NCBI GenBank assembly: GCA_964016885.1
Contig: OZ024746.1
Location: 48,856,001-48,920,000, forward strand
Reading direction: 5' to 3'
Source of the DNA: Eledone cirrhosa
Lineage: Eukaryota
Length of the DNA stretch: 64,000 nt
The notes beneath the pieces were generated by a model. The model searched no databases. It was not told the origin of the DNA and saw only the letters and a program-made list of their open reading frames with translations. The first letter of the stretch is position 1. Each line of letters starts with the position of its first letter. Of the stretch, positions 8,990-62,300 are shown one piece after another. A program made the position numbers and the translations under genes.

Positions 8990-11596
8990 GGAAAGTAATA
9001 AGATTAAAAGGAAAAGGAGATGGGAGACTAAGGACAAAGAGAATAACCAAGACGAACACACAGACACACAAAATAGGGTAGATAACAACATTGAGCCAGT
9101 GGAAAGAGACAGGAGTAATTATGAGAGACATAGAAACAACCATGAGGCTGTCGGTGGAAATAGAAATAGAAACAACACAACTAACAATAACAATAGCACT
9201 AGTACACATAAAGCAGCAGCCTGGAACTCTCCGTTTTATAATCCCTCCGATAAATCATTCGACCTGCGACGAGTCCACGCCACGAATTTACCATTTAACA
9301 AACGCACGCAGTTGCCGTAGCAGGTCGATGAACAAACAGAAGCACAATTTAGTATAGCTAAATCCGAACTTAGAAATATTATAGAACAGTATAGCAAGAA
9401 ACATAATAGAATAGAGGCCCAGCAACTGGGAGAAAAATCTGCAAATGGCTTGCGTAAGCTCATGCAGCGCTCACGTAATGGAGAGATAGCATGCTTTCCA
9501 ACAGACAAGTCTGGCAGAATGTCGGTTGACAGCCTGCCGAACTACATCCAGGCAATGCAACCCCACATCACTAACACAAGAGAGGTAACACCAGAGGAGC
9601 ATGAGGATAGAGAAAAAGCCCTCAATGCCCATATGGTGATGTAGACGAATATAATGCAGCCCAACCAAAGGACTGCCAACAACTTCCAGGCCTGGAACAA
9701 TGACGTGCCGGCGTTGTATGAGCTTCGAAAAGACCATAAAACGGGCTGTGACCCTGTCGCGGGACCACCAACACGGCCAGTCTGTGGAGCTAACATTGCT
9801 AGTAACTACAGACTGTCCTACTTCCTCTCCCTGATCATACGCCCCATCATTGAGATGTCCCCAGATGTATGTGACAGCACGGAGGACCTCCTCAGCAGAA
9901 TCGGCACGAGTAACCGATCTGGGGACCTAACAAACTGCATAATAGGCAGTATGGATGTTGTGTCCCTATTGACGTGGATTTTGCTGTGGAGAAATGCGTA
10001 GAAATGATCAGCGAGAGCAAGGTTGAGTTCCGTGGGATTGATACCAGTGAGCTGGGACTTTTACTTAAGCTTACCCATAGTAATAGTCACCTAGACACTT
10101 ATGACCTTAACAACCTGTGCCCTACAAGACCAGCAAGAGGCAGACCACCTACCATTACCTCAATGGCCAAGAAAACCCACACAGATAGATGGAACGGGTG
10201 GACCGGAGCCATACGGACACCCGAAAACCACGATGAACTGAAGAAAATAATTGCACATGCGGTAGGGGCCAGCATAAAATTAACCCTTAAGGAACATATG
10301 TTCAAATTTAATGGTAAAACATATGCCCAAGAGGAAGGAGCAGCCATTGGTGTTAGCATTGCAGGCGACATAGCTAACTTATTCATGGTATGGTGGGTCA
10401 GTAGACTTAAACAAAAACTTAAAGAACAATTAGAAGACAGCTTAACCCTGATAATGTACTCCCGCTACGTAGATGATATAAACATCGTAGTTAAGACACC
10501 CCCACTAAAGAACAGTCAGGAACTAGAGAAAAACACAATGGAAAGCATCCAGCAAATAGCAAACTCCATCCACCAGAGCATTAGAGTTACTATAGACTAC
10601 CCAAGTAGACACCCCAATCATCGATTACCTGTACTAGACACAGATCTCTGGTTAGATACCATTAACAACCAAAAACAAATCCTCCATTCCCATTATGCCA
10701 AACCCATGACTTCCAAACATCTGATCCACCGAAACTCGGCCATTTCGGACCATACCAAAATCAACATACTGATTGCGGATTTGGTACGGGTGTTGAGAAA
10801 TGTGTCCCGCATGTGCAACCCCGAAGAACTAGAGAGACACATACAACACTTCATCCACCGTATGCAGTTCTCTGGCTACAATCAGAGAGATAGAATCAGA
10901 GTGTATAGAGGAGCCAGAACCAAATGGGAAAAAATGGTAAATAATGACATAAATGGGACCTGCCCCTTGTATAGGAGCAAATTTTGGAATAGAATAGAAA
11001 GAACTAGGAACAAGGCCAATAGAATAAACTCATGGTATGATAGCAATAAATACCAGAGTGTAATGTTCATCAATACAACCCCTAGAGGCGAACTAGCCTA
11101 CAAATTTAGAAGGACCCTAAATAAACATAAACTCAATATTAAGATAGTAGAAAGACCAGGTACCTCCGTAAAAACACTTATTAGCAAGACATACCCGTTC
11201 CAAAGACCCTCATGTATAGATAAGAAATGTATAACCTGTAAAATAAGCCCCCATATTAACTGTAAAACTAGAAATGTAGTGTATAGCATAAGATGTACTG
11301 AAGGACAATGTAGAAACAAAAATATAGTGTACATAGGTGAGACAGCTCGTAGTATAGGGGAACGAATAAATGAACACTGGCGAGACCTTCAAGATAATAA
11401 AGAATCATCTGTGCTCTACCAACATGCTAAGATAGAACACAGGGGTAAATTAGAGAACATAGAAATAAAAATAGAATCCACACACAGAAAAGATGCAATG
11501 TTTAGGCAAATTACAGAGGCAGTAAGCACAAAAGAATTACAACCAAAATTAAATAGAAAATATGAGTGGAACAGCAACATCACAACTTACAATTAA
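8990..11596 (+). pseudogene. PLE RT-GIY-YIG polyprotein, disrupted (TAG at ~9320 and ~9644, frameshift at ~9968)
   Basis: Consecutive ORFs 8661-9320, 9450-9644, 9654-10001, 9974-11596; colinear with the 34005-36416 copy. Confidence 0.88.
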
Positions 11597-30504: not shown

Positions 30505-31808
30505 TTGTGTTCATATATAATGCTGTACAGAATATCAATAAAAAACGTTATTCATTTTGCACGCGCTACCTATCTCCCCCTCGATCTATCTCTCATATTC
30601 CTTCTTTATCCTCTCAAACAATTCTTCCTATATTTCTATTTTTATGTCTCCTATGTAGCTGGTAAATAATAGATGGAGGGTTATCAAGTGAATGCAGACA
30701 CCTCGATATTTATTCATGTTTATATGAGAATCTCGTGTCAATATAATAAAATGTTTATGTCGCATTGGGTGGTAACCCCTTAAGACTAACTTGAGACACT
30801 GCTTTGATTAATATAAACTAAGATCAATCGATTTAAGTATGCACATTCGAATATAAATATATATATATATGTATATATATATACATATATATATATATAC
30901 ATATATATGTATGTATGCATATATATAGATATATATATACATATATAGATATATATATGCATATATATAGATATATATATACATATATATATAGATATAT
31001 ATATGCATATATATAGATATATATATACATAATATATATATATACACATATATATATATTTTATGTATATATGTATATATATATATTTATATATATATAT
31101 ATGTATATGTATATATCTATATGTGTGTGTGTATGTGTGTGTGTGTGTGCTTATGTCTGTGTGTTTGTCTGTGTTTTGGTGTATGTATGCGTAAATAGAA
31201 CTTGCCTACATAAAAGGCTATCTAACAGTCAAAACGTTTATTATGTATGGCTAAGACAGGGACAGTATAAATGTATGTGCATATACATATGTGAAAGTGG
31301 GTCATGTAAAATACGTAGCGTTATGTATATGTGTGAAAACCATTGTACGGACTCACTTAATCATGCCATAGGCACATATCTCCGTGAAAACAGTTATATA
31401 GAAACTTTTATATACTAGATATGAAACTTACACAAACACACACACACACACTTGAGTGTGAGTGTGTGTTTGTGTGTGTGTGTGTATGTGTGTGTGTGTG
31501 TACGTGTAACTTTTATATACTACATATGAAACACACACACATAAGCACACACATACATGCGTACACACACATACACACACATACATACATAGACATACAC
31601 ACACACATACATACACATACACACACACATACATACATACATACATACACATATATATATATATATATATATTATCCCGGTTCAATCGGGGGTAACCACA
31701 GTAAGTAAGGTACTCAATACTTCCTGATGATTTCTACCGAATGAAACAGTTCTAGTCCTGTAGAAGCCATTTCTATATTCTATATATATATAAATATAAG
31801 TAAATATA

Positions 31809-31897
<89 letters not shown>

Positions 31898-32190
31898 GTA
31901 CATATATGTATGCGTATGTGTGTATGAACGGAAAAAATCAAACGAAATTTCATTTCCCACTCTTAGTACAGCTGTTACTGAAATATAAGTATGTACACGT
32001 ACATACATATATGTATACAGACGTACAGTAGTATGTATATATATATACATACATGCACACATATATATATGTACGCATGGATTCAGCGAACATTTATTAT
32101 AATGATCGGTGTGTTTGTAAACAAACATCCCGAATTAAGCCGTAGTGTCTAGCAACCATCGTTGCTCATTTATTCAACACTGACAAAGGA

Positions 32191-32233
32191 ACGCTGTACT
32201 AGTTTCAAGCTTATTAGCTATCGTCAGCAACGT
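32191..32233 (-). ncRNA. Minimal type-I hammerhead ribozyme
   Basis: ACGTTG-CTGACGA-T-AGCT-AATA-AGCT-T-GAAA-CTAG-TA-CAGCGT; palindromic stem III ACTAGT, GUA cleavage triplet. Confidence 0.85.
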
Positions 32234-32610
32234 ATACCTTCCTGCCAGATTGTTGAACGTATATACTTACCTTATGCATATTAACGGCTGAGTAGCCCAA
32301 TTTGCATATCGAGTGGGTTAATCGGCCGGGTGCACCGAAAACGATGAACGGAAAAAATGAAACGAAATTTCATTTCCCACTCTTAGTACGGCTGTTACTT
32401 AAATATAAGTATGTACACGTACATACATATATGTATACAGACGTACAGTAGTATGTATATATATATACATGCACACATATATATATATATGTACGTATGG
32501 ATTCACCGAACATTTATTATAATGCTCGGTGTGTTTGTAAACAAACATCCCGTATTAAGCCGTAGTGTCTAGCAACCATCGTTGCTCGTTTGTTCAACAC
32601 TGACAAAGGA

Positions 32611-32653
32611 ACGCTGTACTAGTTTCAAGCTTATTAGCTATCGTCAGCAACGT
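32611..32653 (-). ncRNA. Minimal type-I hammerhead ribozyme (second monomer)
   Basis: Same sequence as 32191-32233. Confidence 0.85.
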
Positions 32654-32963
32654 ATAGGTTCCTGCCAGATTGTTGAACGTATATACTTTCCTTATGCATA
32701 TTAACGGCTGAGTAGCCCAATTTGCATATCGAGTGGGTTAATCGGCCGGGTGCACCGAAAACAGTTAATATGCATGAGGTTAATATGCATAAGGTAAGTA
32801 TATACGTTCAAAATGCCAGAAGTTTGGAACACTGGAATACTTTGTTGCGATTCGTCTCGATAAGCTGTTAAATAAAGGAACAGCTGCAAATAAACTAGAA
32901 TAAGCGTTTTCCTTTTCTTCAGAAAGCGCAACACAGCATGACTTTACCAGAATTACATACACA

Positions 32964-34004: not shown

Positions 34005-36898
34005 ATGGAGTGCAAAACGGAGCTGGAAAAGTGTTTCACAAAAATACGTTGGAATGCAAAGGTAAACAACAACAACAATAATAACGGTAGTAGTAATATA
34101 AACAATAATTCTGAGTATAGAAATAACAGCCGTAACTATAACAATAGCAGGAAAGTGAGAAATAGTGATAATGGTAATAATACTAGCTATAGACAGAACA
34201 ACAACAACCACAATAATAATAATAATAATAGAAACATTAACCACAGACACAGCAGCAGCGACCACAGTAGTAATAACGGTAACAATACGAACAACAACAA
34301 CAATAACCACAGTGGTAATAATGGAAATAGTACATGTAGCAACATCAATGATAGACACAACAAAAACAAGAAACATAATAAAAGTAACAACCACAATGGT
34401 AGAAATAACAGTAACAATAACAACAATAACGGTGAAGTAAACAACAATACATCTAGCAATCATAACAATAATAATAATGCTAATGATAGAAACAACAACA
34501 ACCACCATGATAACAATAATAGCAACACACACAACTATGACGATAGATATAATGACAACCCCTTAGAGAAACTATTTTTCAACCCAGCTGACAAAACATA
34601 TAAGATGGGTAATATCTATCCTACGAGGTTACCCTTTAATAAAAGAGTTTGCATACTACAACAAATAGATGACGAGACAGAGGCACAGTTCATCATAGCT
34701 AGAAATAAGATTAGACAAATAGTAGACAGGTATACTAAGAGACAGAGCAGACCAGAAGCATATAAGGCAGCATGGATGTGGTGTCACTGTACTCATCCAT
34801 TAACATTGATTTTGCTGTGAAAAGATGTGTGGAGATGATCATTGAGAGTGAGGTGGAGTTCTGCGCCGTCAACACAGACCAACTGGGCCTCCTACTTAGA
34901 CTTACCTACGACACTGACTACCTAGACAGCCATGACCTTAGATGTTTCTGCCCTAGTAGACCTATAAGAGGTAGACCCCCCACCATAACCTCAATGGCAA
35001 AAAAGACTCCCATGGGAAAGTGGATTGGGTGGACCAAAGCTATACGGACCCCCAAAATAATGATCAGGTAAGAAAAATGGTCGCACATGCAATAGGGGCT
35101 AGTATCAAAACTACCCTAAAGGGCCACATATTTAAGTTCAACGAGAAGATCTACACCCAAAATGAGGGAGCAGCCATCGGCGTCAGCATAGCTGGTGATG
35201 TTGCCAAACTTTTCATGGTATGCTGGGAAAGGAGACTTAAAGATCTCCTTAATGAGAGCTCCATAGACCTCATCATGTACTCTCGTTATGTAGACGATAT
35301 CAATATAGTTATAAGAACATCCCCACTAGAGAGCACTAACAAGTTTGATTTAGAACGTAGCACGATGGAAAGCATCCAGCAGATAGCTAATTCCATACAC
35401 CAGAGTATAACTGTAACTATCGATTTCCCTTCCAAACACCCTAACAATAGACTACCTGTATTAGACACAGAACTCTGGATTAACACTATAGACGAGAGAG
35501 CCCAAATTCTCCACTCACACTATGCTAAACCCATGGCCTCCAAATACCTGATACTCAAAAACTCAGCAATGTCCAGTAGTGCTAAGTTTAATATTCTGAT
35601 CGCAGATTTGGTACGAGTGATGAAGAATGTGTCCCGCATGTTCGACCCAACAGAAATGGAAAGACACATCCAACACTTCATCAACCGCATGGAATTCTCT
35701 GGCTACAACCAAAGAGACAGAGTCAGAGTATACGAAGGAGCCATGGAAAAGTATAAGACCCTCATAGAACTGGACATGAAAGGAATTTGCCCATTATACA
35801 GAAGCAAATCATGGAATAGCTTAGATAGGGCTAGACATAAGATAGGGAAAGCCACATCATGGTACGACAACCAGAGATACCAGAGTGTCATGTTTGTGGA
35901 CGCCACCCCTGGAGGGAAATTAGCTAACCAGTGTAGAAAGGCCCTGAGAAAGACCCACTTAAAAATAAAGGTGGTAGAAAAGCCAGTAACCACCATAAAA
36001 TCCCTAATTAGCAAAACCTACCCTTTTAAGAAAACCCACTGTACCAATAGGAAATGTATCATATGTAAGGTGAACCCCCGGATAAACTGTAAAACTAGAA
36101 ACGTAGTCTATAGCATAAGATGTACAGAGACATAGGTGAGACAGCTCGTAGCATAGGTGAAAGGATAGACCAACACTGGGGGGAACTAAAAGGACGAAAA
36201 AACGGGTCAGTACTATACGAACATGCTAGACAACAACATGACGGTAACATAGACAACATAGAAATTAGAATAATATCTAAACATAGAAATGACCCAGCAG
36301 ATAGGCAAATCAGAGAGGCCAGTGAAATAGAAATAAGAAGACCAAGGCTAAACAGAAAGAATGAATGGAATAACAACAACACCCAAACAAACAACACTGA
36401 CCTAAGAGAAGTATAAATAAGTAAATAAAATAAAATAAATAAATAAATACATACACAAGCACAATAACAACAAGCACATAAACACACACTAGTCACCCAT
36501 CACACAGCAAACAAAACACTATACACACACGCAAACGCATGCGCAAAGAAGACAAAATAAAATAAACAAACAAGCAAATAAATAAATAAATATATAGACA
36601 GACTGAATAAAAATGGCGTAGACATAAAATACAACAGGAGGAAAATATAACACCACTGACGATGTTGCAGATGTGCAACGAAAACTTTATGATAAACTAT
36701 ATATATGTGTTTGTGTCTATATTGTATCTGTATTATTTTTGACCGTCGGTCAGTCAATGGCAACATTGAGGACCGAGTAAGTTAGATTACCGATATAAAA
36801 GACACAGAAGCGAGAAGCGAAAACCAACCAAACCGTGAGTGTTCTGTTATTAATTCTGGCAATATTACACAAATATGACCCTCCCCAAGTATAACAAT
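34005..36898 (+). mobile_element. Penelope-like element related to 8056-12013; internal deletion and Asn-rich N-terminus
   Basis: ORFs 34005-34820, 34772-35071, 35020-36135, 36120-36416 colinear with 9974-11596; same terminal ATGACCCTCCC.AAGTATAACAAT. Confidence 0.92.
36653..36692 (+). ncRNA. Hammerhead motif in pLTR (stems I and III imperfect)
   Basis: CA-CTGACGA-T-GTTGCA/TGCAAC-GAAA-ACTT-TA-TG. Confidence 0.6.
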
Positions 36899-36909
36899 AT
36901 ATATATATT

Positions 36910-39900
36910 TCACTGCCTCCGCCTCCACCTTATCCCCCTCGGCTTCCGTCTACACTTCCACCCCTCCCCCGCCGCTTCCCCCTCCACGCAACGTATCCTC
37001 ACGCCTCCTGATGCGCAACTCCATCCGCGCCTCCCGTTCCACCCTCCGCCTACTTGACCACCAACTGACCCCCACCCTCCTCCGCCTTTACTCCACCTGC
37101 CACCCCCTCCTCGCCCAAGCCATCCTCTCCTTCATCCACAACCTCAACCACAACCTCTTCTCGTTCCTCAGCTCCACCAAAGCCCGCAAGTTACACTCAC
37201 TCCTCCCCCCCATCCACCACCACCCGCCCGTCCCCATACGCCCACCACTCTCCACCTCTCCCTCGACCCCCCCAATCTCCACCCTCCACATCACCCCTCA
37301 CCCCCCAAACACCCAAACCCCACCCCTTGTTGTCACCATACCCCCTGACCCCCACCTCTCCGCACCTGAGCGCTCACTCCTTAGTAGAGGCCTTCGCTTC
37401 ATACCCCTCGCCCCCTTGTCACCACCCTCCCCTCCCACATCTCCGACACCAACCACGCCCTGCGCCTTTTCGACTCCTTCACCTACCTACCCGGCCCACA
37501 GCCCTTCCTCTTCACCCTAGACATCAAGTCCCTCTATACAGTCATCCCCCACGCCGACGGCCTTCGCGCCATCAAACACTACCTCGACCTTCGCCCCTCC
37601 CCCATTCCCTCCACCCCCACCCTCCTTCGCCTCGCCGAGCTGGTCCTCACCCTAAATTGTTTCTCCTTCTCGGGTGAGTTTTACCAACAGGTCACGGGGG
37701 TAGCCATGGGCACAAGAATGGGCCCGAACTATGCCAACCTTTTTGTTGGCCATGTTGAGGCCCAAATCTTTGCCCAGTACACCGGCCCCACGCCCGAACT
37801 GTACGGTCGTTACATTGACGACTGTATCGGAGCTACGACCCTCACCCGAGAACAGCTCGACTCCTTTCTCTCCTTCTTCTGCCTTCCACCCCTCCCTCCA
37901 CTTCACCACCTCTATCTCCACCACCCACGTCCACTTCTTAGACATCTCCGTTGCCTTCGACCCCTCCCACCACTCCCTCGTCACCTCCGCCTTCTTCAAA
38001 CCCACCGACTCCCACTCTTACCTCGACTTCACCTCTTCCCACCCCACCCACACTAAACACTCCATTCCCTACTCCCAACTTCTCAGGATCCACCGCCTCT
38101 GTAGCCGTGATGCTGACTTCGAGTCCCAGGCCCCTTCCCTAGTCAGCCATTTCATCCGCAGAGGTTACCCCCCCCCCCCCCCCCTCTCGTCTACACCGCT
38201 CTCACCCGCGCCCGTGCTATCCCCCGCTACACCACCCTCACCCCACGCCACCGCACACCCACCCACCGTCTCCCCTTCCCCATCACCTACCACCCCTCCA
38301 CCTTACCCCTCCACCGCACCATCCGCCGCCTCTTCCGACGCATCCAGTCCGACCCCTCCACCTCCCACATCTTCCCAACCCCACCACTCCCCTCCTTCAA
38401 ACGCGCACGCAATCTCCGCACCCTCCTCATCCACAGCTCCCTACCCCCCAACCCACGCTCTGTTCCCCCCCCGGTTCCTTTCTCTGTTCTAGGCCCCGCT
38501 GCAACACCTGTCCCCACATCACCAACACCACCACCCTCCAGGGTCCCAACGGCCACTCTCTCTCGGTCCGGCATGCCTTCCGCTGCACCTCCTCCAACCT
38601 AGTCTACAGACTTATGTCGGACAGACGGGACGTCGCCTGGCGGACCGAGTCACGGAGCACCTCCCGGATATTCGTCTCGGGGGCAGTTCCCCCATCGCCC
38701 GCCACTCTGGTGGCCCTGGCCACTCCGCACGCCATCTCACAGTCTGTGGCCTACTCCAGTGCCACGGAACACCCGCCCATCGCCTTACGGTCGAACAACG
38801 AACTATCTTCATCTTACAGACCCACACTCCCCCCGGCCCGAACTCCCCACCCTTATTCCTTTAGCGTTCGACCCCCCCCCCCCCCTCTACACTTATTCCC
38901 CACTAACACCACTAACACACCCCTCCTTTTCACCGCCCACCCCACACTAACAATACTAACACCTCCACTACACCCCTCATCTGACCACCCTGCCCCAACT
39001 AACATACTAACATCCCTTCCCTCCCCTCTTCTCCTCCTCCCCCTCCTTATCACACGCACACACTTACACCACCCACCCCACACGCAACTAACATCACTAA
39101 CACCCCCAACCCCACGCACACGTACCCACACACCCTCGTACACCACCAACTCTACACACCCTACCACCACTAACCCCCACTCACACCTGCATTCAACCCC
39201 TCCCCACCTCCCGTATACTAACACCCACTAACACATCTTCCCCAAACTACACACACACCAGTACACCACACTCCCTCCATAGAACCACACACACCCTTCT
39301 CTCCCTGCTCCACCCACACCCCCGCTCCACACTCACTCATCCCACTAACACCCCTACTAACACACACACACACACACCCTCCTCACTCCAACTTTCACAC
39401 CTACCCATCCTGGCCCCCTTACCATTCCACCGACTGCTGCTATGCCCTTCTGACCACCTCCCAGCACCAACAGACCACAGCACTCCCACTGCTGACCACT
39501 TCCTGTTGCGCGCGCACCCCACATCTCTCCTCTTCCGACCACCGCTTCATGGATTACCCACACGCAGAAATTGACTTATAACCAATCCTCCTAACATCCT
39601 TGGAACTTACCAACTTTTCAACCATCCTCTTACGTCATCACCTATATAACTCACCCACACACACACCCCCCAAAATTTTTTTTATCCACACGCCACCCAC
39701 ACCCACAACACGCTTAAATCCCACACACACGTGCTTCCCACCACATATTTACACCCTCAGCCTCCTGATTCCTCTCCCCCCACCCCCTATCCACACACGC
39801 ACAGACACTCCGACCCACAAAAACACCCCCCACACACACCTCTTCCTGAACATGTAACCCCGTTCTTCCCCCAACCCTTACTTTCACATACACACACACA

Positions 39901-41092: not shown

Positions 41093-41475
41093 ATATTAAT
41101 AAGAGGAATTCCAACTTTGTCTGATTTACTCGTTTTATTTACAATCCTTTAAAATATATAATGGTATTATAATGAAATAGTATGATAGAATATAAAATTC
41201 TAAGTGTTAAATGAACAGGTACTTTCATGCTTTCGCAATCTTCAGGTTCATAAAATGTGGTGACAGTCGAGTTTGCAATTTTCAACGCGACTGCAATTTT
41301 CAACTCGACTGTCACCACATATTATGAACCTGAAGATTGCGAGAGCATGAAAGTACTTGTTCAATTAACACTTAGAATTTAATATTCTACCATACTATTT
41401 CATTATAATACCATTATATATTTTAAAGGATTGTAAATAAAACGAGTAAATCAGACAAAGTTGGAATTCCTCTTA

Positions 41476-41480
<5 letters not shown>
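41093..41480. repeat. ~390-bp fold-back palindrome of PLE tails, hammerhead at 41325-41363 (+)
   Basis: Arms are reverse complements; TGAAC-CTGAAGA-TTGC-GAGA-GCAT-GAAA-GTAC-TT-GTTCA. Confidence 0.85.
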
Positions 41481-41571
<91 letters not shown>

Positions 41572-41577
41572 CATATA

Positions 41578-43364
41578 TATAATAGAATTCGTTCTATTAA
41601 GGATTCTAATGCCGTGCACGTGCATTCCGACAAAACTGGCAACCTATATCAAGTGGAGCGCAGTACTTACCATCAACTACTATATAATGCTGTAACTAAG
41701 GATTACCGTAAAACTAATCGGTGCGTCATCAATGAAATCAACGATGCTGGTTTTAAAATCACATCTGATCTCAACATCCTGGACCGGACCGAACCTCTGG
41801 ACCCTATTTCTCCCCACTTTACCCTGAAGGATCACAAATCCAATTTTCCGAACAACCCCTCTATTCGGCTTATTAACCCTACGAAGTCCGATTTAGGTAG
41901 ACTTAGTAAAACTATTCTTGATAGAATTATACCTGATATTAGAAATTTGGCCCCTCTTGCACTGTGGTACAATTCTTTCGCGGTGATTGATTGGTTCAAC
42001 GGCATATGTAACAAGGAACATTGCCGTTTTATCCAATTCGACATCAACAATTACTACTCCTCCATCACTTTACCACTTCTCCTTAGAGCTATCAATTTCG
42101 CTAAAACACTCACAGTGGTTAAGGATTTGGAAGTTGATGTCATCCTCAATGCCCGAAAGTCGGTGATTAATTTCGACGACTCTATTTGGATTAAAAAATC
42201 CAATAGCACCCCATTCGACGTGAGCATGGGTGCTAGTGATTCTGCGGAGGTTACTGATCTTATCGGCCTTTTCCTTCTTTTCTCTATCAAGGACGAATTC
42301 CCCAACGCGGGCGGTGGTTTGTACCGTGACGATGGTCATTTGACCATGACTAAGTGCGGACCTCGTGCTTGCGGCAGGTTCAGAAAAAGAACTCACAGCC
42401 TTCTTTAAAAGCTTCAACCTCTCTATACAGGTTGAGGCCAATCTCTCGGTCGTTAATTACCTTGACGTTACCCTCAATTTATTGAATGGCTTGTATTACC
42501 CGTATAGAAAGCCGAATGATACGCTTAATTACATAAGTAAGCATTCCAACCATCCTGCCACCATAACCAAGAACCTGGCTTTCCCGTCTTTCCACCAACG
42601 AGCGTATTTACAACGACCATTCCACTTATTACAATGAAGCTCTTGCTCGAAGTGGATTTGTCGATAAGGTAGCATATACAGAGTACGAAAATAGACCTAG
42701 AAGAAATAGGTCCCGTCGCATTTGTTGGTACAACCCACCATATAATATGGAGGTGGCCACACCATTAGCTAAGATCTTTATTTCCCTTATTACGAAGCAT
42801 TTTCCCCCTACACATAAATATAGTAAAATTTTTAATAGAAATACTATTAAAATTTCTTACTCTACGACTCTTAACCTTGCACATAACATCACAGCTTCAA
42901 ATTTAGCTAAACTACCTAGCCGTAGGAACACGTGCAACCCTGTAGTTAGTACTAACTGTAATTGTAGGAATCGGGTTGATTGCCCCCTATCCGGGAAATG
43001 CCTAAGGTTGTAACACCCACGTCCCGTAGGGCCTACATAGGGTTAACCGCCAATAGATTCAAGCAGCGTCTTTACACGCATACCCATTCTTTTCGTTACC
43101 CTCTAAGAAGGAATATGACGTCACTTTCAGCTTATATCTGGAGTCTAAAAGACAACAACACCCAATATAAGTTACACTGGGAGATCCTAGCTATGGGCTA
43201 GATCGTATAACGGAAATAAAAGACCTTGTGACCTCTGCACCGCTGAGGCCCTGGAAATACTCTACGCCACAGGCCACATCTTAAACAAAAAATCTGAGGC
43301 AATTTCAGCTTGTAAACATAAATTGCACAAAACCTTCCTGTATTACAGCCCCACGTTATACCCT
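41578..43364 (+). mobile_element. Penelope-like element (tentatively Hydra-clade-like), coding part, frameshifted; interrupted by the Gypsy element
   Basis: TLKDHK..F, RLINPTKS, FDINNYY, FDVSMG, GLYRDD, WYNPPY, AYIGLT..FKQR, CDLC, LNKKSE..CKH; the frame resumes after the TSD (YP|HG-stop). Confidence 0.88.
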
Positions 43365-43820
43365 TTTAGCGGAGAGTTATATTTAGAGAGTTGTAATGTT
43401 GGCACGAGGAACCAGGTTTGGTAGAAAGATATGATAGGAATATCGACAACGACTTTAGCTTGTTTTTACATTATTTATTAACAAAGGTTAAGAAGTGAAT
43501 TAAGCTGGCATGCCAAGAATAATGAAATAATTCAATTAAGATTACAAGAGAAAATACGGTCGACTGGCTGAGGCGTTTGGCCAGGTCCGTAGTAAAATTG
43601 TTGTGTCGTTACATATTGTTTGTGCTTACGGAGCAAAAGAACAAGTGGTGTTTACCTTAGCATGGTCAAGCTGCAAGTCTTATATTTCTCAAATCTTCGC
43701 GGTCTATTTCTCCCTCAGAACGCGTAGGGATACATTCTCTTCCCCTGGCGCTGATTGGCTGAGCTGAGCCAAATCACGCACAGAGAATGTTTGTGAGCCC
43801 GCGGAATGTAGGTCACTACA
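43365..43820 (-). repeat. 3' LTR
   Basis: Direct repeat of 50011-50466. Confidence 0.95.
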
Positions 43821-45645: not shown

Positions 45646-48600
45646 TTATATTACTGCATAGCTTACGGGGCCAATGCACCCTTCGCCCAGAACGGGTCGT
45701 AGTTCTGTGTGTTGATGATGGGGGGGGGGGGGAGAAATAGGCGTATCTGGCAAAGAAAAAGAAGGGGGCATTTGAGTTTCAAGTGTCATTGTGTCATTGT
45801 CCAGGTTTGCTCGTTTGAGACGATCAACGGAAACCGTTTCCCTGGAACCCCGAATGTCCAGTGTGAAATGTTTGTCTGTGCGAGCAAGCACACGATAGGG
45901 TCCAGAGTACGGCCGTTGAAGAGGGGGTCTCACGTCGTCGTCTCTAACGAACACATGTGTCCACAAGGCAATATCCCTTGGGACGGCAGTTTTTACAGTC
46001 TGCTTCCTAGTGCCCATCGGTGGTAGATCCTTGAAATAAGAGTGAAGCCGAGACACGTAGGAAGCGGGGTCCTGCGAAGTCAGGTCAAAAGGGGCCAGCA
46101 TTTGCCCCGATAACGCCAGAGGAGTACCATAAACTAATTCGGCAGAGGAGAACCCAAGATCCACCTTTACCGTCGACCGAATACCCAACAACACAATAGG
46201 TAGGTACTCGCTCCAACGTGAAGAGTCCATGGAAGCCCTTAAGAAGGCTTTGAGTTGCCTGTGGAAACTTTCCACCATTCCGTTTGAGGCTGGGTGGTAA
46301 GTCGTGGTTCTTATTCGAGTAGCCCCGAGGATTTGGGTTAATTCTCGGAAGAGGTTAGACTCAAATTGACGACCACGATCCGTTGTTATGGTGGTTGGTA
46401 CACCGAAATGAGCAATCCATGAAGATACGAGAGTACGGGCTGTGGTTTCAGCGGTGATATCTGTTATAAGAACGGCTTCAGGCCAACGCGAAAAACGGTC
46501 AACAATCGTCAAAAGATACGAAAAACCACGACTAACCGGCCACGGGCCGACGATGTCCACATGAATGTGACGAAATCTTGCATCCGGGCAGGTGAAGGTT
46601 CCGAGAGGAGCCTTAACATGTTTATGAACTTTCGCTTGTTGGCAAGCGACACAGGAACGACACCAAGCAGCAATGTCATGTCTCACATCAGGCCAGAAAA
46701 ATCTGGCTGTTATGAGTTTTACTGAGGCTGATACTCCTGGGTGAGAAATGCCATGTAAAGCGAGAAACACAGTTCGTCGATGTTCCACTGGGACTAGAGG
46801 TCGTGGTGAGTCCAACGAAACATCACACAGTATTTGTCCGTCAGCAGTTGACATCGGAATGTATTTCAGTTTGCAATGTACAAACTCTGGCGATGTAACA
46901 TCCAACGATTCGAGAGTGGGTTGGGCAGCTGCCATTCGATGTAAATCTATCTCCTCGGGAGACGAAATCGATGCGATCGGCAGGCGAGACAGCGCATCGG
47001 CGCTGTATTCAAAGAACCCGGAATATGTTGAATGTCGTTCGTGAACTGTGAGATGAAGTCCAGATGTCTCGTTTCTCTGGGCGAGTATTTGTCTGCTTTA
47101 GTTCGAAGAGCAAACGTCAAAGGTTTATGATCAGTGAAAATGGTGAATGTTCTACCTTCAAGTACATGAGCAAAATGTTTCACTGATAAATAAATTGCTA
47201 ATAGCTCCCTTCCAAAGGTGTTATAGCGAGTTTCGGCAGGCTTTAACTTCCTCGAAAAGAACTCGAGTGGTTGTTGTAACCCATCACACTTCTGCTGTAA
47301 GACTGCGCCCACGGCGCTATCCGAAGCATCAACACAGAGCGATAGCTCGGCGTTGGGTACTGGGTGGGCGAGCAAAGACGCGCTCGCTAACGCCTTTTTC
47401 ACTTTTTTAAAATCCTCAAGCTGCGTTTTATTTAAGGAAATGTCCATATTCTTACGCCGGCAACCCTTAACAATTTCTGTCAACGAGAACAGCAAGTTGG
47501 AACAACCAGGTACGAATCGCCTATAAAAATTTACAAGGCCCAAGAATTGACGCAATTGTCGCAGTGAACTTGGCGGAGGCAAATCCGATACTGCCTTAAC
47601 CTTCTCAGGAAGAGGTCGAATACCATCGGCGTCAATCAGATGGCCTAAAAATGTTAGTGAAGTCGAGCCGAAAACACACTTGGAAGCATTGATACGAACA
47701 TTATATCTCTGTTAACGACGAAATACGAGATCCAGATGCTTTGAATGCTGCTGAGGGGAAGAACTAGCAATCAACACGTCATCGATATACGTGTACACAA
47801 AATCCAGGCCCCGAGTAACATCATCCATAAATCGTTGGAAGGTACTTGCAGCATTTCTAAGGCCGAAAGGCATAGTGAGGAACTCGAATGATCCGAAAGG
47901 AGTGGCAATAGCAGTCTTTGGGATATCCTCCTTATTAACCGGAATTTGATTATAAGCGCGGATCAAATCAAGCTTAGAAAAGATTCTGCAATCCTGCAAT
48001 GACGATGCAAAATCCTGCAAATGCGAGATTGGATAACGGTCAGGCACAGTAATCGCGTTTAAGCGTCGGTAGTCACCCGTCGGTCTCCAATCACCAAAAG
48101 ATTTAAGTACCATATGTACAGGCGATGCCCAAGGACTTGTGGAACGCCGAATTATTCCTAATTCCAGCATGTGGTCGAATTCAAGACGTGCAGCTTTCAA
48201 CTTCTCTGCAGATAATCTTCGAGGACGTGAGAAAACAGTGGACCTGTAGTGGATTTGAAGTGTTCAATCGCATGATCCGGGCTAGTAATTCGTAACTTTC
48301 CCTGCGTCAACTGAGGGAATGAATGTAACAGGCTTTGATACTGGTTGCCCACTTCAGCCAAGAAAAAGGAAGGGCTGACAGTGGTGACGTCCGGCTCTGA
48401 ACCCTCGAAAGAAAGGCCTGTTTCAGCATCAAAAAGGGGTTGTCTGCGGATGTTCACCAACAAGGAAAAATGGTGGAGAAAATCCGCTCCCAAAATGGCG
48501 TATGGCAAGTCGGCGATAGTAAACTTCCACTTCAAATCACGACGCAAATCTTTTAACCGAAGAGGAAGCGAAATTTGCCCGTACGTTCGAATGGCCGTGT

Positions 48601-48760
48601 GGTTGACTGCTCGTAGATTTATATTTGATTCAGATGGTTTTTTTTTTTTGAGATAACTGACTGGCCAAATACTCAGCGACGCGCCAGTATCGACAAGGAA
48701 AAATTTTTTCGACCACAGGTCGTATACGATAAGATGGCGGTTCGGTCGATTTTCCCAGAG
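45646..48760 (-). pseudogene. pol: Gypsy pol (protease, RT, RNase H, integrase), frameshifted
   Basis: FLVDTGA (~48690), ILGADFL, SPWASP, DYRRLN, YIDD, DASD..RELLA..TDHKPL, H..SHPG..C..C, TDRGRQF, NGMVE, PYSGPY. Confidence 0.93.
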
Positions 48761-48774
48761 TTCAGTAGCCGCCC

Positions 48775-49643
48775 CTAGTGGCTCTGCTTTGCGTTTTCCG
48801 ATCTCTTGTAATTACAGGGCGTGCGACAACGTTGTGCCCTACTGCTGAAGTTAGCATGATACCAACAAAACGAAGAATTATTGTTGTCTGCGTTGTAGTG
48901 CTGGCGATGAATAGAAGACGGCGGCGAACGGTACTCGTAGCGGTTTCGAGCAATAGCAGACGGAGGCGAACGGTACTCGTAGCGGTTTCGAGGAATAGCA
49001 GACGGAGGCGAACGGTACCTCAAACGTTGTGAAGGCTCCCTGTGTTGTACGGTCAAATCCTCCACTTTTTTGGTAAGCGCTTCGATCATCTCCAACAGTT
49101 TGCTGTCGGCCACAGAAGAATTGCGTGGGGAACAGAAGAAGAAGCCACACAAGGATTATGCCGATTGCTGTTAGAGTCCACCTCAAGTATTGTATCCGTG
49201 GATGCGGCAAGCTGCTCTAACGACTTCCTCTCCAAACTATTAACCAAAGCCCTTTGCGCACTTGGCGGTAAACGTGAGAAAAAGAGCTGTTTTATGAATG
49301 GGGTGTCCATCCCCTTGGAGTCGCTCAACTCTCGCAAATGTCGCAAATAGGAGCTCGGCGTTCTGTCACCCATTTGCGCATCCTCCAACAACTCCCGAAA
49401 ACGACTTTCCACCGACTTGGTATTTCTCCGAAGAATTTCGGTTTTTAACGAGCCGTAGGTAACGTCGGTGTCCAAATCCGTCACCACGTCCTTCACTGAG
49501 AATGCCAAGGAAACAGGCAGGCCATTGATCAGGACCTTTAACCTGTTTGTTTCCTTAGTATGGGTCAAGTCGAAGTAGCATTCGAGCTGCGAAAACCACA
49601 ATCCGACGTCGCCTGCGAAGGTCGGCAAATGATGTGGATTCAT
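48775..49643 (-). pseudogene. gag: Gypsy gag with CHCC knuckle and a 39-bp (13-aa) tandem repeat; one frameshift
   Basis: LWFSQLE, MGDRTPS..LR, FFSRLP; (YRSPPSAI.RNRYE)x~3; CWYHANFSSRAQRCRTPC. Confidence 0.9.
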
Positions 49644-50001
49644 GATTGCCGAAGATTTTAAAAATTTTTAAGGACGAATTATGTCCCTGAAGCAGCTATA
49701 TGATCAAAAGGATATACTGGAAGTCCGAAATCAGTTGAAGACTCCAAGATGGCCGGTCTCTTTTGTGTTGTATTTTTGTGTTAGTCTGTATGCGTGAGTT
49801 ACTAGTGTTACCATGAAAGTTATGACAGAAATATTGTGCAGGCCGCGTGCTTCAACAAATGGAATATTATGAATTTTATGGACTTACGCTAAGTGAGTCT
49901 AGCTACCCGATTCGAACATTCCAAATGTTAAGCCACTCCACATTGCCGTTAAAACGAATGGCGAATTCAAATAGGCTGCGTTTTCATACTTAATCATTGA
50001 A

Positions 50002-50470: not shown

Positions 50471-51505
50471 CATGGATAGTACGATCTATACGTGGATATT
50501 TTACGTCTTGATGTGGGAGCTAAATATATGTTTTGTTTACACCATTACTTATTTGCATAGGTAAGTATATATTACCCGTATGTTTCGTGAAGGTACGTAT
50601 ATCTTCTCGTACGTTTATTTGATTGTTTATATTATGGCGTATAAACTTTTTTTATATTTTTTTTATTCTGGTACATATGGTTTGGCTATGTGTATACTGG
50701 AGTTTTGCGTCTGTGTGAGTATGCAGGTTCGTACGTATGTAGGGTGTGTGTATATGTGTACTTCATGTTTTGGTTGACTTACGTCTCCGAACATTCGTGT
50801 ATTTACATGTAGGTATGTGTGTGCGCTTGTTATTTACGTATTTATTTATTTATATACGTTTATATAATTATTTATTTATTTATCTGTATACACGCATACA
50901 CACACACGCACATATTTATATGTGCGTGGTTTTGTATACCTATGGTAAGTGTTTTGCGTATGCTTGTGTATGTACCTATTTGTTTGCGTGTATGTATTTA
51001 TTTATTTCTATTACTTCTGTATTGTATTTATTTACTTTGTTCTTAACTCTGTAGCGGAGATTCAATCGGTCTCCTAGTTAAAATTTTAGTCTACGGATTC
51101 TGCTATACCATTTACGTGATTTTGTCTTTGCGTGCTATTGTTCTCCACGCTCCACATATGACGTATTATCTTCGTTTTTTCGTTCATTGCCAGAGAACAT
51201 CTCTATGAACCACCTAAGAGAACATTAGTCTACGACCTCTTTTATACCATAAACGTGGTTCTGTCTTTGCGCGTAATTGTTTTTCACCGCTCCTATTAAT
51301 GACGTATCTTATTCGTTTTTTCCCGTTCTTTGCCAGCGAACGTTTCCACGAACCAAAATATCGTCTTCCTGTCTTCCTCCAGTTGCAACGTTTTTTGAAA
51401 TATCCACTTCTGCGTTTACAGATTGACTTTGTTAGTTTCAGAAGATCCCGTTAAGGGTGAAAGCAGCGATTCTTTGCTTAAACTTTAATCTGTTATTTTA
51501 ATAAA
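50471..51505 (+). mobile_element. 3'UTR/pLTR of the 41578 PLE, with degenerate hammerhead (~51439-51465)
   Basis: CAGAAGA-TCCC..GGG-TGAAAGC; tail reappears as the palindrome at 54941-55040; ends in (TA)n. Confidence 0.7.
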
Positions 51506-51593
51506 TATATATATATATATATATACACATATATATATACACATATATATGTATGTATATATATGTATATATATATATATATTTGTATATATT

Positions 51594-51688
<95 letters not shown>

Positions 51689-51699
51689 ATATATATATA

Positions 51700-54584
51700 T
51701 AACGACCTTATATTGAAGGAACTAAGGAAGAAATATAAAGTAGCAAATAAGGACGAACTTGAAAAACTGAATAAAGATGCCTCTTGTATAATGCATGAAC
51801 TAGACATTGAAAATAAAACACAACCCTTCATGCCAAGGAAACCTAAGATCAATATGAAGGATCATAAACGAAACTTTGAAAATGATTTACCAGTCAGATT
51901 AATTGCACAATCTAAATCTGGCCTGGGCAGACTTAGCATAAATATTCTAGATAGAATAATACAACAAATTAAGAATTTACCTAATTTATCTTACTTAAAA
52001 TTATGGAAAGGGACTAGTGAGGTTATCGATTGGTTTAAAGAAATTAAATATAACTATAATAATAAGTTTATTCAGTTGGATATTGCTAACTACTACTCAT
52101 CTATCACTCCTAATCTACTGAATAAGGCACTAACTTACGCATTTAAACATACAGACCTAACTAGCAATGAAATGCACATTATATTATCGGCACGGAAAAC
52201 ATTAATAGAATTTAATAACCAACTCTGGACTAGGGCAGATAGAAATAATAATTTCGACATAACTATGGGATCTTCAGACTCAGCTCAGGTAACGGACCTT
52301 GTGGGCCTTTTTATAATTAATTCTCTACATAGAAAAATACCAGGGGTAACCGGAGGCTTATATCGTGACGACATGCTTTTAATTATAGAAAATAATAGCT
52401 TCGAACTAAATAGAAAAAGAAAACAAATTATACAATTTTTTAATTACCTTAATCTAAAAGTAGAAATAGAGAATAACCATAAAATAGTCAACTTTCTAGA
52501 TGTAACACTAAATCTAAACACATGTCTTCATTATCCATTTCACAAACTAAATGAGAACTTAAATTATGTCAATTTTAACTCTAATCACCCCAGATCCGCT
52601 ACTCCTTTTAATTCCTCTTCTGAAAATTTTGATTTTTGTATAGAGGAAATATTTTTGATATTAAAGACCAAAAATTCACTTAATTTAAGGAATAATTTAT
52701 TCAGTTGCTGCAGACATAGATTGAATCAACGCTTAAATGTAAATATAAATTTAAAATGTAGTTTAATTAATTAAATAATTTAGTTAATATACGAAACCTG
52801 TCGCTAAATCATTAGATTCCTTCACCTTTTTCATTTTCTTTGGTTAAGTACCCAAGTATAAATTTTCTTCATAAATATAATTATAAATATAATAAACTAT
52901 TCTAGAAAGTTTATCCTTTCAATATCTTGAATAAAATATGCGTAAGATAAATTTCTATACTAAACATATTATTTTAGCTTAAAATATTCTATAATATTTT
53001 AAAATTTTTTAAGATTTTTTAAAATTGAAAAAAAAATTTCTTTTAAAGATTTTTGAAATTTAAAAAAAATTTTTAAAATCATTTATTTTTTATTTTTTAT
53101 TTTTTTAAATTTTTTAATATTTTTAAATATTTTTAAATATTTTTTAATATATTGATATCTGTAGAATCCTTGTTTTTTAAGTTATAATATAATATTTTTT
53201 TAAATTTTTTTATTAGATTCATTTTATTTTTTATTTTTTATTTTTTATTAGATTTGTTTTTATTCTGATAGCTTCTCATAATTTTCAAAAGTTTTTCCTT
53301 TCAATGTCTTGATTAAAATATACGTAAGATAAATTTCTATGCTAAATATATTAAACATATTATTTTAACTTGAAATATTCTATAATATTTTGGGATATTT
53401 TAGTATTTTGATGTTTGTAGAATTCGTTTGCCTTTTAAGTTATATTGATATAATTATATTTCCAAAATATAATCCTTTTGTATTTTATATACTCAATTGT
53501 ACTATGTTATATATTGATGTATATTTATGTCTATGTACGGCTTATGTATCTATATGTGTGTGTTGACATACATATACATGTGTTATATGTTTTTTTTGTG
53601 ATTATATGTCTGTATATATGCATGAGTGACGCGTGTATACCAATTGAAGATGCACACACATATCTATTCATGTATAGCTAAGAATTGTGGGTGTGAATGT
53701 ACGGGCTTACACATGCAGCTTTTGATTGCAGATATACATAATTTAACAGCCATAAATGCAGAAAAGTTAATCCTATATATTTATATATATGTACTAAATT
53801 TTTTTAATTAATAACACAAGGAGTGTATAGCAATAAATAAAAAATCACTTATGCTTTGTATGTATACATTATATGGGTGAGTAGATATAGTGTATATTTT
53901 CTGAGTGAGTGAGTATATATATATATTTATGTACCTTTGCCTATGTATATGTGATATACGATAGATAACCTCTCTAGCAATATATATATTTTATAATGTT
54001 TAAATTCCAATTTTTAATATATTGATCTCAATTTTTAAACTAAATATATAATTATAATTAAACAATGTGTAATTTCTCATATTATATATCTATATTCCAT
54101 TCACGAATATTAATATTTCTAATTTTATTTATTCATTTCATCTCAATTGTTAACTCAACTTAATATGACATAACTTAAGGTTTTTATTCTCTCCCCCCTC
54201 TATCTCTACATATCTCTCTCTTGAGTTCTTTCTCTGTCTGATGTTTTGATATCTCCCCGTTATTTTTCCTCTGTTCTCTTTTCTTTTTGCTTTCTTCTTT
54301 TTCTTTACCTATCTTTCCCTTTCTTTTCTCCACGTTTCTCTCTCTCTCTCGCCATCTTTTGACTTACTCTTAACACTATGACTTACTAAAGTAAACAAAC
54401 CACTATCCGGATGGCCTCCAAAAGCAACGGTCACCTTTTTGAAAGGGTACATCAATATCTATTTGTAAAACTGTTATATATTGTATTTTGTCTGATGAAG
54501 GCATACCATGATATGACTTGGTATCCTTGAAATATATATAATGAAATAAATATGGTTTTATAAATATAGTTTCCATTTATTAAT

Positions 54585-57956: not shown

Positions 57957-57990
57957 CGTACAGTAGTATGCATATATATATATATATATG

Positions 57991-58489
57991 CATACTACTG
58001 TACGTCTGTATACATATATGTATATACGTATACATACATACTTTCATTTAAGTAAGTGCTGTACTAAGAGGGAGAAATGAAATTTCGTTTCATTCCATTT
58101 CAACTTATCGTTTTCGGTGCGCCTGGCCGACTGAACTCACACGATATGAAAATTAGGCTGTTCAGCCGTTAATTTTCATAAGGAAAGTATATACTTTCGA
58201 ACGTTCAACCATCTGGCAGAAGGGTATACGGTACTGATGATAGCTAAGAAGCTTGAATCTAGTACATCGTTCCTGTGTCAGTGTTGAACAAAAAGGTGAC
58301 GTGGTTGCCTTAACACCGTAAGGCATAAATCAGGCTGTCCGTTTGTTTACAAACGGACAAAGCGGACGTTATAATAAACGTCCGCTAAACTGATACGTAC
58401 ATATATATATGTGTACCTGTATGTATATAATATGCATACTACTGTACGTGTGTATACATATATGTATGTACGTATACATACATACTTAC
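57991..58489 (+). mobile_element. Diverged, circularly permuted copy of the 420-bp hammerhead unit, with terminal redundancy
   Basis: Homologous to the reverse complement of 31925-32760 across the monomer junction; CATACTACTGTACG at 57991 and 58435; hammerhead 58228-58270 with GAAA>GAAT. Confidence 0.8.
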
Positions 58490-59372: not shown

Positions 59373-62300
59373 TGTGTGTGTGTATATAAGAGTAATTGGT
59401 GGTAGAGGGATGGTCAGTAGGAATGTGTCTGTAAGTGAGTGAGGGATATTTTAACATGTTAAAAGATATTTTTCAGCTCTTGTCTTATACGGAGAAGTGT
59501 GTGTGTATGTGTGTGTATAAGTCTCTTTGTATGTTAATGTACGCGTGTGTATGTGTGTGTGTATATATGTGTGTATGTGTGTGTGAGAATGTGTGTGTGT
59601 GTGTGTGTGGGTGGACCAGTATTTTTTTCCTGGTAAAATGGTGTACATTATTCGATATTTTCAGTAAAATCGATTCTCTCAATAGAACATCAAAAACCTT
59701 AACAATAAAAGGTGTGAAATGAATATTCACTATATATATATATATACATATATTCACTATACATATATATATATATTTTTTTTGTGTTGCACCATAGAAC
59801 ATGTGTGTTTACGTATGTCATTGTATTTATATGTGGGTATCTATGTTGACGTGTGTATGTTGTGGGTTCGTCTTAGGGAGAAGTGTTTAGACGGGGGTGC
59901 GTATTTGTTAATAAAGTAATATTCCTTGCTGATGCGCTGGGTGTGGTGGCATTATCTTTAAATTTGTAGAGGGGAAAGATTCTGAAGTTGGGATGATTTG
60001 GGCGGCACAGGTATCAATGTGTTCACTCAGTGGTATTTTCCTGTATTCCCGTATTTTAATTGGGATCTATGGACAGTCATGCGTTGGCGGAGGCTGTTTT
60101 TGGTCTGGCCTATGTATTGTTCTCGACAACCTGAGCAAGTTAATACATATATTAGATTTTCCGATGCACATGTGAAATTGTGTTTTACTATAAAATGTTG
60201 TCCTTCTTTGAAATAGAATTCCGAACCCTCTATTAGGTTGATGCAAATGCCACAGTTGGGTCTATCGCATTTTTTTTACTGTGGGTTTCGTTGTTGTGGT
60301 TGGTGGTACTTTGGCATGTGTTAAGATGTTTTTCTTTGATTTAGATTGTCTTTTGCTCTTTATGATATCGTGCGTACGTAGGATTTGGTTCATTCTATGG
60401 TCCTTTTTCAACACAGGGATGTTCTGGAGGATGGTGTCAAAGGCCTCATTGTTGAGGGGGTTGTGTGTGGAGATGTATGGAAGTGCTTTTAGTTTCGGTT
60501 GATTTACTTTAGGGTGTCTAAGGTCCTGGGTACTGAGTTTTAGGGCACGTTGGATTCCATTGTCAATTAGTGATGCAGGGTAGTCCCTGCCTATGAGTGT
60601 GTCCTTTAGTTCTTGTAGCCGTAAGTAGCAGGTGTTTTTATTGGAGACTATAGTACAGATTCTCTTGGCTAAGTTGTAGGGAATATTAATTTTAACGTGT
60701 CTTGGTGGCAAGATTTGAAAGGAAGATATTGCTTGGAGTCTGTGGGCTTGTGGTATCTGTCTGTTTCTATTTTTTTTGTTATGGATCTTAATGAGGATGT
60801 CGAGGAAGGGGAGTTGTTGATGGCTGTATTCCATCGTGAAGTTAATATTCGTGTTGAGCCCATTTATAAGGGTGTGAAATTCTTTAAGTTTCTCGATGAT
60901 TTTGTGCCAAAGGATGAAGCAGTCATCTAGATATCGCTTCCAGTTCCTTTCTATGTGTAAGTGGAGAGTGTTTCCAAATTTGTTTAGGACTTTAGTGTAG
61001 AGGGTGATTTCCAGGTATCCCATGACTAGGTTGGCATAAGTGGGGCTGTTTTCGTTCCCATAGCGGTCCCAGATTTTTGCCTGTAGGGTTTGTTATTGAA
61101 AACGAAGTAATTGTTCTCCAAGATAAATGTGAGACCCTCTATCAATGAAGTTGCTAAGGCGGTGGGTTCGCAAGCGGGGCCTGCTATTTTAGGTCTTAAT
61201 TTGAGATCATTGGGTGAGGGGATATTGATGACTATGTCTGTGGCTTCCTTGCATGCCTTACTTATTAATTCGCTTTTATGTACTTTAGGGATACCGTAGA
61301 AAGGCTGGATTTACTTGTGAAGTCTGTGATGAAGCTGAATTCCTTGTTAGTGAGTCCTTCTTTGTATTGGTTGATCAGAGTTTTTAGGTTTCTCATAATT
61401 TTCTGTTGATTGTAGTGTTCAGCCTTTTCGTAGTATGTTTCGTTTTCCAAAGTGGAGAGCGCTAAGTTGATATAGAATTCTGTCTCCATTAGCACTACTG
61501 TACTCCCTTTATCAGCCTCTTTAATTGTAATGGTTCTGTCGGTTTTTAATCTATTTAATTCTTCCCATTCTTTCTTGTTGAGATTTGGCTTGTGTTTTTG
61601 TCTGTGCAAGTGTTGGTAAGGGAAGTTTGTGATGTGTTCACAGAATTCATCCAGGATTTTATTTTTACCTTTTGATGGGGTGTAATTTGCTTTTATTTCT
61701 GTCTAATGATTCATCCTCATTGTACTGGTCGAATAGTTGTTCACTGAGTCGTAACTTTCTACAGAAGTCTGTGATGTCTTCATTCATTTCATAGTAGTTA
61801 GGACGTAGTGGGGTCGGTGTGAATTTAAGACCTTTGGAGAGTAAGTTGATAAGGTTGGGTGTTGGTTCTGCACTAGTAAGATTGATAATTTTTATTACTA
61901 TCGGTTTCTCCTCCCTGTCTTGTGTTATTTTGTTTGCCTGTATCTGTGTGCTGTGTCTAAAAAATGGTTGGGGTAGAGGGGTTGTCTGCTGATGTTAATT
62001 GGTCTCCTGTGTTTGTTATATTCCTTGTTGTTGTAAAATGTGGTTCGGGTTGGTGGTTGTAGATTGAATGGGGTGTTCCTGTACTGCGAGTATGGGTGTG
62101 TGTTTCTATGTGCCATGTTGTATTGTGGTGTTATAGGTGACCTACTTTGTTGGTTGTATCGTGTGGTGTGGGTTTGTTGTGTATTGTGGAAGCGAGAGTT
62201 GAGAAAATGGAAATTACCTTGCTGTCCCCTTGAAGCGGGGAAGTTGTTACATCTATCATGGTGGTGGTATGTTTTCCCTATGTTTGACGATGAGGCATCC

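Follow-up and report, generated by a model that had tools for sequence, protein, structure and literature searches.

The window, a stretch of 64,000 nucleotides from Eledone cirrhosa, carries on its minus strand a tandem pair of a 420-bp repeat, which Tandem Repeats Finder, run on the whole 64-kb window, reports at 31924-32762 with 2.0 copies. Repeat finding and comparison of copies place the upstream (5′) unit at 32344-32763 and the downstream (3′) unit at 31924-32343, the end at 31924 being the fixed distal 3′ end of the repeat family at unit position 420. The second site at which members of the family end, unit position ~359-364, is internal in this copy (31981-31993, and also ~32400-32413). 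A TA-rich target tract (31781-31923), seen in the sequence and by repeat finding, adjoins the 3′ end of the dimer, and at its 5′ end there is a short inverted piece on the plus strand (32764-32811), in which a partial duplicate of 15 nt comes before unit positions 59-91. The dimer shows no evident target-site duplication. An earlier reading of this DNA, made from the sequence only, had described an exact 420-bp tandem unit without a meaningful ORF, set in a TA/CA microsatellite and bearing an inverted piece at its 5′ end. The period is indeed exact, but the units are mismatched at 18 of 420 positions; likewise, the 3′ TA tract and the inverted piece are there, but the flank on the 5′ side (32812-32955) consists of unique sequence. 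As to coding capacity, that reading was right, since the two longest ORFs that begin with ATG in the circularised monomer encode just 49 and 53 amino acids and both derive from microsatellite sequence. An older relative of the family lies elsewhere in the window (57966-58484, plus strand); it is ~80% identical, has its core changed to GAAT and reaches an assembly gap. The window dimer is an aged and decayed two-unit copy of an abundant ORF-less repeat.

A motif scan detected the same 43-nt type I hammerhead core on the minus strand of both units (32611-32653 upstream, 32191-32233 downstream), in agreement with the identical hammerheads previously noted in each repeat. The core is composed of helix I (ACGUUG/CAGCGU), CUGACGA, helix II (AGCU/AGCU), GAAA, ACUAGU and a GUA cleavage site. 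Its A17 is found at 32617 and 32197, a spacing of exactly 420, and cuts predicted between 32617 and 32616 and between 32197 and 32196 would delimit a monomer of 420 nt (32197-32616, minus strand) with 37.6% G+C. The computed circular fold of this monomer has 70% of its bases paired, with a z-score of −6.0 against 60 shuffles that is inflated by the TA/CA hairpins it contains. Helices I and II of the downstream hammerhead are predicted to form, and folding together with compensatory changes in relatives supports an extended helix I (32172-32258) of ~25 pairs. A conserved internal loop, which lies in this helix at a distance of six pairs from the core, is a candidate for loop 1 in a contact between loop 1 and loop 2.

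Helix III amounts to a single A-U pair with a palindromic CUAG loop (the 6-nt palindrome ACUAGU), and helix II starts with a U.U mismatch. With a one-pair helix III and a palindromic tetraloop, cleavage is likely to require two hammerheads. The upstream unit carries a private two-base change at 32657-32658, because of which its helix I is predicted to misfold (predicted pairing 0.05-0.11, versus 0.45-0.94 in the downstream copy). Double cleavage is therefore doubtful for the window copy, even if it holds true for the family, and by these folding predictions the copy has probably lost efficient double cleavage. The sequence-only reading had assumed one intact hammerhead per monomer, which does not hold in view of the one-pair helix III, the U.U mismatch at helix II and the predicted upstream misfold; its picture of a non-coding hammerhead tandem unit is supported for the family, and for the window copy, given the upstream misfold, its prediction of double cleavage is weak. 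Both weak features have counterparts in axolotl: HHR_Amex1 has a one-pair helix III with a palindromic tetraloop, and in HHR_Amex2 a U.U mismatch forms the base of helix II; both motifs cleave well when dimeric but poorly when monomeric (PMC7229834, in its accessible part). Unlike in the axolotl motifs as given there, the two features are combined in a single motif here, and the likeness is one of features. Most invertebrate type I hammerheads, according to the available text of PMC7761336, have a stable helix III and are cut as monomers.

Rfam gave no hammerhead match, neither for the whole window nor for 32150-32300, and the assignment as a ribozyme is based on motif, folding and covariation. 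For the latter, eight sequences were aligned, namely the two window copies, two relatives of ~80% identity and four copies of a sister family of ~65% identity. Among these eight, which form a small set of only three or four related groups, 94% of alignment cells pair in the proposed structure versus 24-44% in slid controls, and both partners have changed in 9 of 28 pairs; because the eight rows amount to so few groups, the shuffle control overstates the covariation. The sister family, 65% identical, retains the fold through compensatory changes, and its helix III is still palindromic, reading ACAUGU in 16 of the 25 loci in which the motif could be located (30 examined) versus ACUAGU here. That the sister helix III is a different palindrome supports pairing between two hammerheads. 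Variation within the family is lower at the hammerhead, but this was left unused as evidence, because the loci had been selected on the hammerhead.

A further conserved element is the octamer ATGCAAAT, situated ~75 nt upstream of the core on the minus strand (32300-32307, and also 32720-32727). It is found at this distance in the young and the intermediate family as well as in the sister family (19 of 25 loci), and it is present in two more distant relatives too. Newt satellite 2, which has an octamer-driven promoter of the snRNA type, offers a parallel to ATGCAAAT. The octamer also falls within a predicted hairpin of the monomer fold, so that structure could account for its retention.

In the 3.0-Gb assembly, a 32-nt core pattern of the family has 24,623 exact matches, whereas a control pattern has none. 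The best 40 scored matches to the window copy are 97-100% identical and are spread over many contigs. Family copies are ORF-less and 5′-truncated. Among 96 insertions in 85 loci, 47 have head-to-head arms, and 139 scored 3′ ends fall near unit position 420 (70), near 364 (53) or elsewhere (16), with 109 of the 123 fixed ends continuing into (TA)n. Exact patterns counted genome-wide give 4,596 junctions of an end into TA and 5,592 junctions from unit to unit. The sister family has two matching kinds of 3′ end, as judged by eye. Contigs from four sequencing runs of three organisms also cover the unit; the type of run is unrecorded, and these contigs are uninformative as to ends, strand and level.

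How did such a family spread? Two fixed internal 3′ ends delimiting a ‘tail’, truncated 5′ ends, inverted 5′ arms and microsatellite targets are all signs of integration by Penelope-like elements (PLEs), and on this sequence pattern it is likely, and we consider it a well-supported inference, that the 420-bp family has been mobilised in the manner of PLEs. The PLE protein of Anolis, PAc, was shown in vitro to use two internal start sites and AT-rich targets and to extend both strands (PMC11167929), and partial tandems, inverted 5′ copies and a bias for microsatellites are described for PLEs generally in the available portion of PMC8557442. Our family thus has in common with PAc and with the nonautonomous Chlamys elements the two internal starts with a ‘tail’ between them, the targeting of AT-rich or microsatellite sequence, the partial tandems and the inverted 5′ copies (PMC11167929; PMC8557442, as far as accessible). 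In contrast to these, as they are presented there, the 420-bp unit is without an ORF, its ‘tail’ is ~56-61 nt long as compared to 30-40 nt, and there is TA microhomology between its ends and the target, whereas PAc starts at non-homologous sites.

An earlier proposal had been to check whether the unit is ever attached to a reverse transcriptase ORF. In 101 loci (568,729 bases), drawn from a family of thousands and many of them with flanks of only 1.5 kb, no direct join to a PLE ORF was found, nor did any sampled locus have an ORF with reverse transcriptase and GIY-YIG domains between the repeats, as in the pseudo-LTR (pLTR) arrangement of autonomous PLEs. A match of some kind to a PLE protein is present in 29 of the 101 loci; in six there is a same-strand PLE piece within 900 nt of the unit, and a TA tract intervenes in all six. 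The genome harbors several PLE families that are young and whose open frames measure 780-900 codons. Three PLE families, two of which we take to be Poseidon-like and one Neptune-like, were sampled at 30 loci each: each family has a 3′ region of its own, with two ends that continue into (TA)n, and none shares sequence with or is homologous to the unit. Pfam named no PLE protein above its cut-off. One young, presumably Poseidon-like family (L064 2-2512, L101-L130) has open frames of ~905 codons; its copies occur in tandem, its two 3′ ends, ~44 nt apart, run into (TA)n, and it is a candidate helper.

Some PLE 3′ pieces do join the unit without intervening TA (L127 897-1036, L188 and L072 4096-4290), the junction of the Poseidon-like piece with the unit at L127 being a single event genome-wide. 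As proof of a helper, we discounted these junctions and that at L027, which might equally be insertions into TA tails with loss of target or template switches; unrelated LINE pieces also adjoin 5′ ends of the unit. A resemblance of ~15 of 17 nt between the distal end of the unit and the end of the Neptune-like elements is absent from older subfamilies and was set aside.

The ends also bear on the nature of the template. The predicted cleavage site coincides with the 3′ end in none of 137 arms and with the 5′ end in two, so a linear monomer, cut and then primed at the end, was not the template, and priming was internal. Most sampled loci were picked for hammerhead content or for likeness to the window copy, which biases how often arms span the hammerhead. 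The units within one insertion belong to a common subfamily in 18 of 20 loci, where 10.0 would be expected, and subfamilies are mixed in the other two. A private variant is common to the units of one insertion in six of 20 loci, the window locus included (null mean 0.16); in two loci it spans both inverted arms, and at L223 nine almost identical units extend across two inverted arms. This pattern fits a single source sequence per insertion, which could have been a circle and could just as well have been a homogeneous multimeric transcript. Length of an array is a poorer guide. At L224-L225, more than 40 units of an older subfamily make up an array that is satellite-like and has four-unit higher-order repeats. 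The arrays at L222 and L087 show ABAB alternation, which we rejected as evidence for dimer circles: the end units of L222 have mutations of their own while its inner dimers are identical, pointing to local duplication after insertion. The long arrays examined grew in this way, and their length is therefore no proof of rolling-circle copying.

The 420-bp repeat is most likely, as far as can be told from its sequence, a metazoan non-LTR retrozyme, that is, a kind of element already described rather than a new one. Like these elements in the accessible part of PMC7229834, it is a short tandem unit without an ORF and with less than 50% G+C, present in thousands of copies in a genome that contains PLEs, with a strongly self-paired predicted circle and a type I hammerhead with extended helix I. 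The type I motif is supported for each unit by motif, fold and covariation, with the upstream window copy predicted to misfold, and units were free of an attached reverse transcriptase ORF in the 101-locus sample. The unit, known here from sequence alone, stands at the top of the 150-450 bp range reported there, and that text, in the part available, gives no account of the fixed internal 3′ ends, the TA targeting and the head-to-head arms seen here. The working definition applied to Xenopus non-LTR retrozymes, a run of two or more units that have type I motifs, also describes our repeat (bioRxiv 10.64898/2026.07.22.740005, accessible part). In contrast to Xenopus retrozymes as that part presents them, no homologous pLTR was found in the three PLE families sampled here.

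The sequence itself shows the unit and how often it occurs, its fixed 3′ ends and truncated 5′ ends, the arms placed head-to-head, the targeting of TA and the lack of an attached ORF. From these we consider it fairly probable that the RNA of this ORF-less family, which is predicted to cleave itself via paired type I hammerheads, is reverse-transcribed in trans into (TA)n by a PLE protein. Two hammerheads in a multimeric transcript would have the palindromic helix III of 6 bp in common and release monomers of 420 nt, which would likely be ligated to circles, as shown for the retrozymes of coral, mussel and axolotl. A PLE protein would nick (TA)n and prime cDNA inside the RNA at either of two sites, which lie ~215 and 273 nt beyond the point of cleavage, and cDNA starts on both strands would often give head-to-head arms. 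Copying would pass the hammerhead site, such that the template would be a circle or an uncut multimer and not a cut linear monomer; between these two we lean slightly towards the circle. Some insertions would afterwards have expanded by local tandem duplication. A bolder version, in which circular-RNA parasites with an octamer-type promoter of their own make up a lineage that is long-lived and stands by itself, and in which the insertions are a direct record of a PLE protein carrying out rolling-circle target-primed reverse transcription, is possible but rather doubtful as a whole; the footprints behind it are the two internal starts far from the cleavage site, the priming on both strands and, in young insertions, the units that are identical between the two arms.

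The same PLE-dependent, non-autonomous element could instead spread by way of uncut multimeric read-through RNA, with circles absent or incidental and the source arrays renewed by local duplication. The fixed internal 3′ ends and the read-through of the hammerhead site would fit equally well, local amplification is evident in the arrays, and uncut RNA is the main substrate of PAc in vitro (PMC11167929). We nevertheless hold this to be unlikely, because families that are no more than ~65% alike have retained both the fold and the palindrome, which implies selection for cleavage, and because related animal elements yield abundant circles. Lower still do we rate the chance that the unit is the pLTR of a rare autonomous PLE outside our sample and that the copies are its truncated products. 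Xenopus retrozymes are indeed tied to pLTRs of PLEs (bioRxiv 10.64898/2026.07.22.740005, accessible part), and 101 loci (0.57 Mb), many with 1.5-kb flanks, represent a family of thousands; yet the 5,592 head-to-tail junctions close the unit and leave no room for an ORF, none of the 101 loci has a direct ORF join, and the sister family is ORF-less in 30 loci, with the exception of one copy inside the TA tail of a PLE. Finally, the satellite-like expansion of some arrays and the lack of an Rfam match might suggest an ordinary minisatellite with a hammerhead-like motif by chance. The dispersal over many contigs, the fixed positions of the 3′ ends, the insertion into TA, the inversion of 5′ arms and the compensatory changes make this highly improbable.

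With retrozyme-like mobilisation by a PLE protein as the preferred explanation, the value of the family lies in the size and clarity of its insertion record, by which both the PLE-helper and the rolling-circle steps become testable. PLEs were proposed as helpers of retrozymes from co-occurrence and from the kinship of pLTRs (PMC7229834; bioRxiv 10.64898/2026.07.22.740005), and retrozyme repeats are described as having neither a motif that points to a helper nor a promoter (PMC7761336; all three in their available parts). Thousands of PLE-specific insertion ends, young intact copies and young PLE families coexist here in one genome, which together makes for a good system in which to test the copying of a retrozyme circle by a PLE. 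If true, the rolling-circle reading would provide a record of a step that is proposed but undemonstrated in the retrozyme papers cited here. As for cleavage, one of nine predicted dimers from Xenopus was active in a survey whose accessible part is without molluscs (bioRxiv 10.64898/2026.07.22.740005). The family had been thought to be undescribed. This agrees with the literature on octopus and cephalopod retrozymes, hammerheads and Penelope that we searched, which holds no account of a 420-bp family, and the repeat catalogues Repbase or Dfam may list it; the kind of element, in contrast, has been described already (PMC7229834; bioRxiv 10.64898/2026.07.22.740005).

Several other elements were seen along the way. 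Next to the TA tract of the dimer, the window contains a separate small hammerhead element (31672-31780, core at 31724, plus strand) with a full four-pair helix III; more than ten loci contain relatives of this element, which are often short pairs set head-to-head within TA tracts. Hammerhead-like motifs belonging to other families lie at five further positions (22081, 22418, 40496, 41330 and 54492), and in most of them helix III is palindromic. Outside the window, L093 (1100-3350) has another hammerhead family in tandem, likewise ORF-less, with a period of 310 bp, the helix III palindrome ACGCGU and head-to-head arrangement. Rfam matches to miRNAs in the window proved to be microsatellite hairpins below threshold. 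Six PLE-like reverse transcriptase frames of at least three types are present in the window (9914-11596, 34975-36400, 37388-38864, 41437-43400, 51482-52774 and 59900-61900), which by their motifs we take to be Hydra-, Nematis- and Neptune-like; the presumed Neptune-like frame has many near-identical genomic copies with open frames of 784 codons. On the minus strand there are also broken frames of an LTR retrotransposon (45646-49667), presumably Ty3/Gypsy-like by their motifs, and a broken LINE (141-2828) that we assume to be RTE-like.
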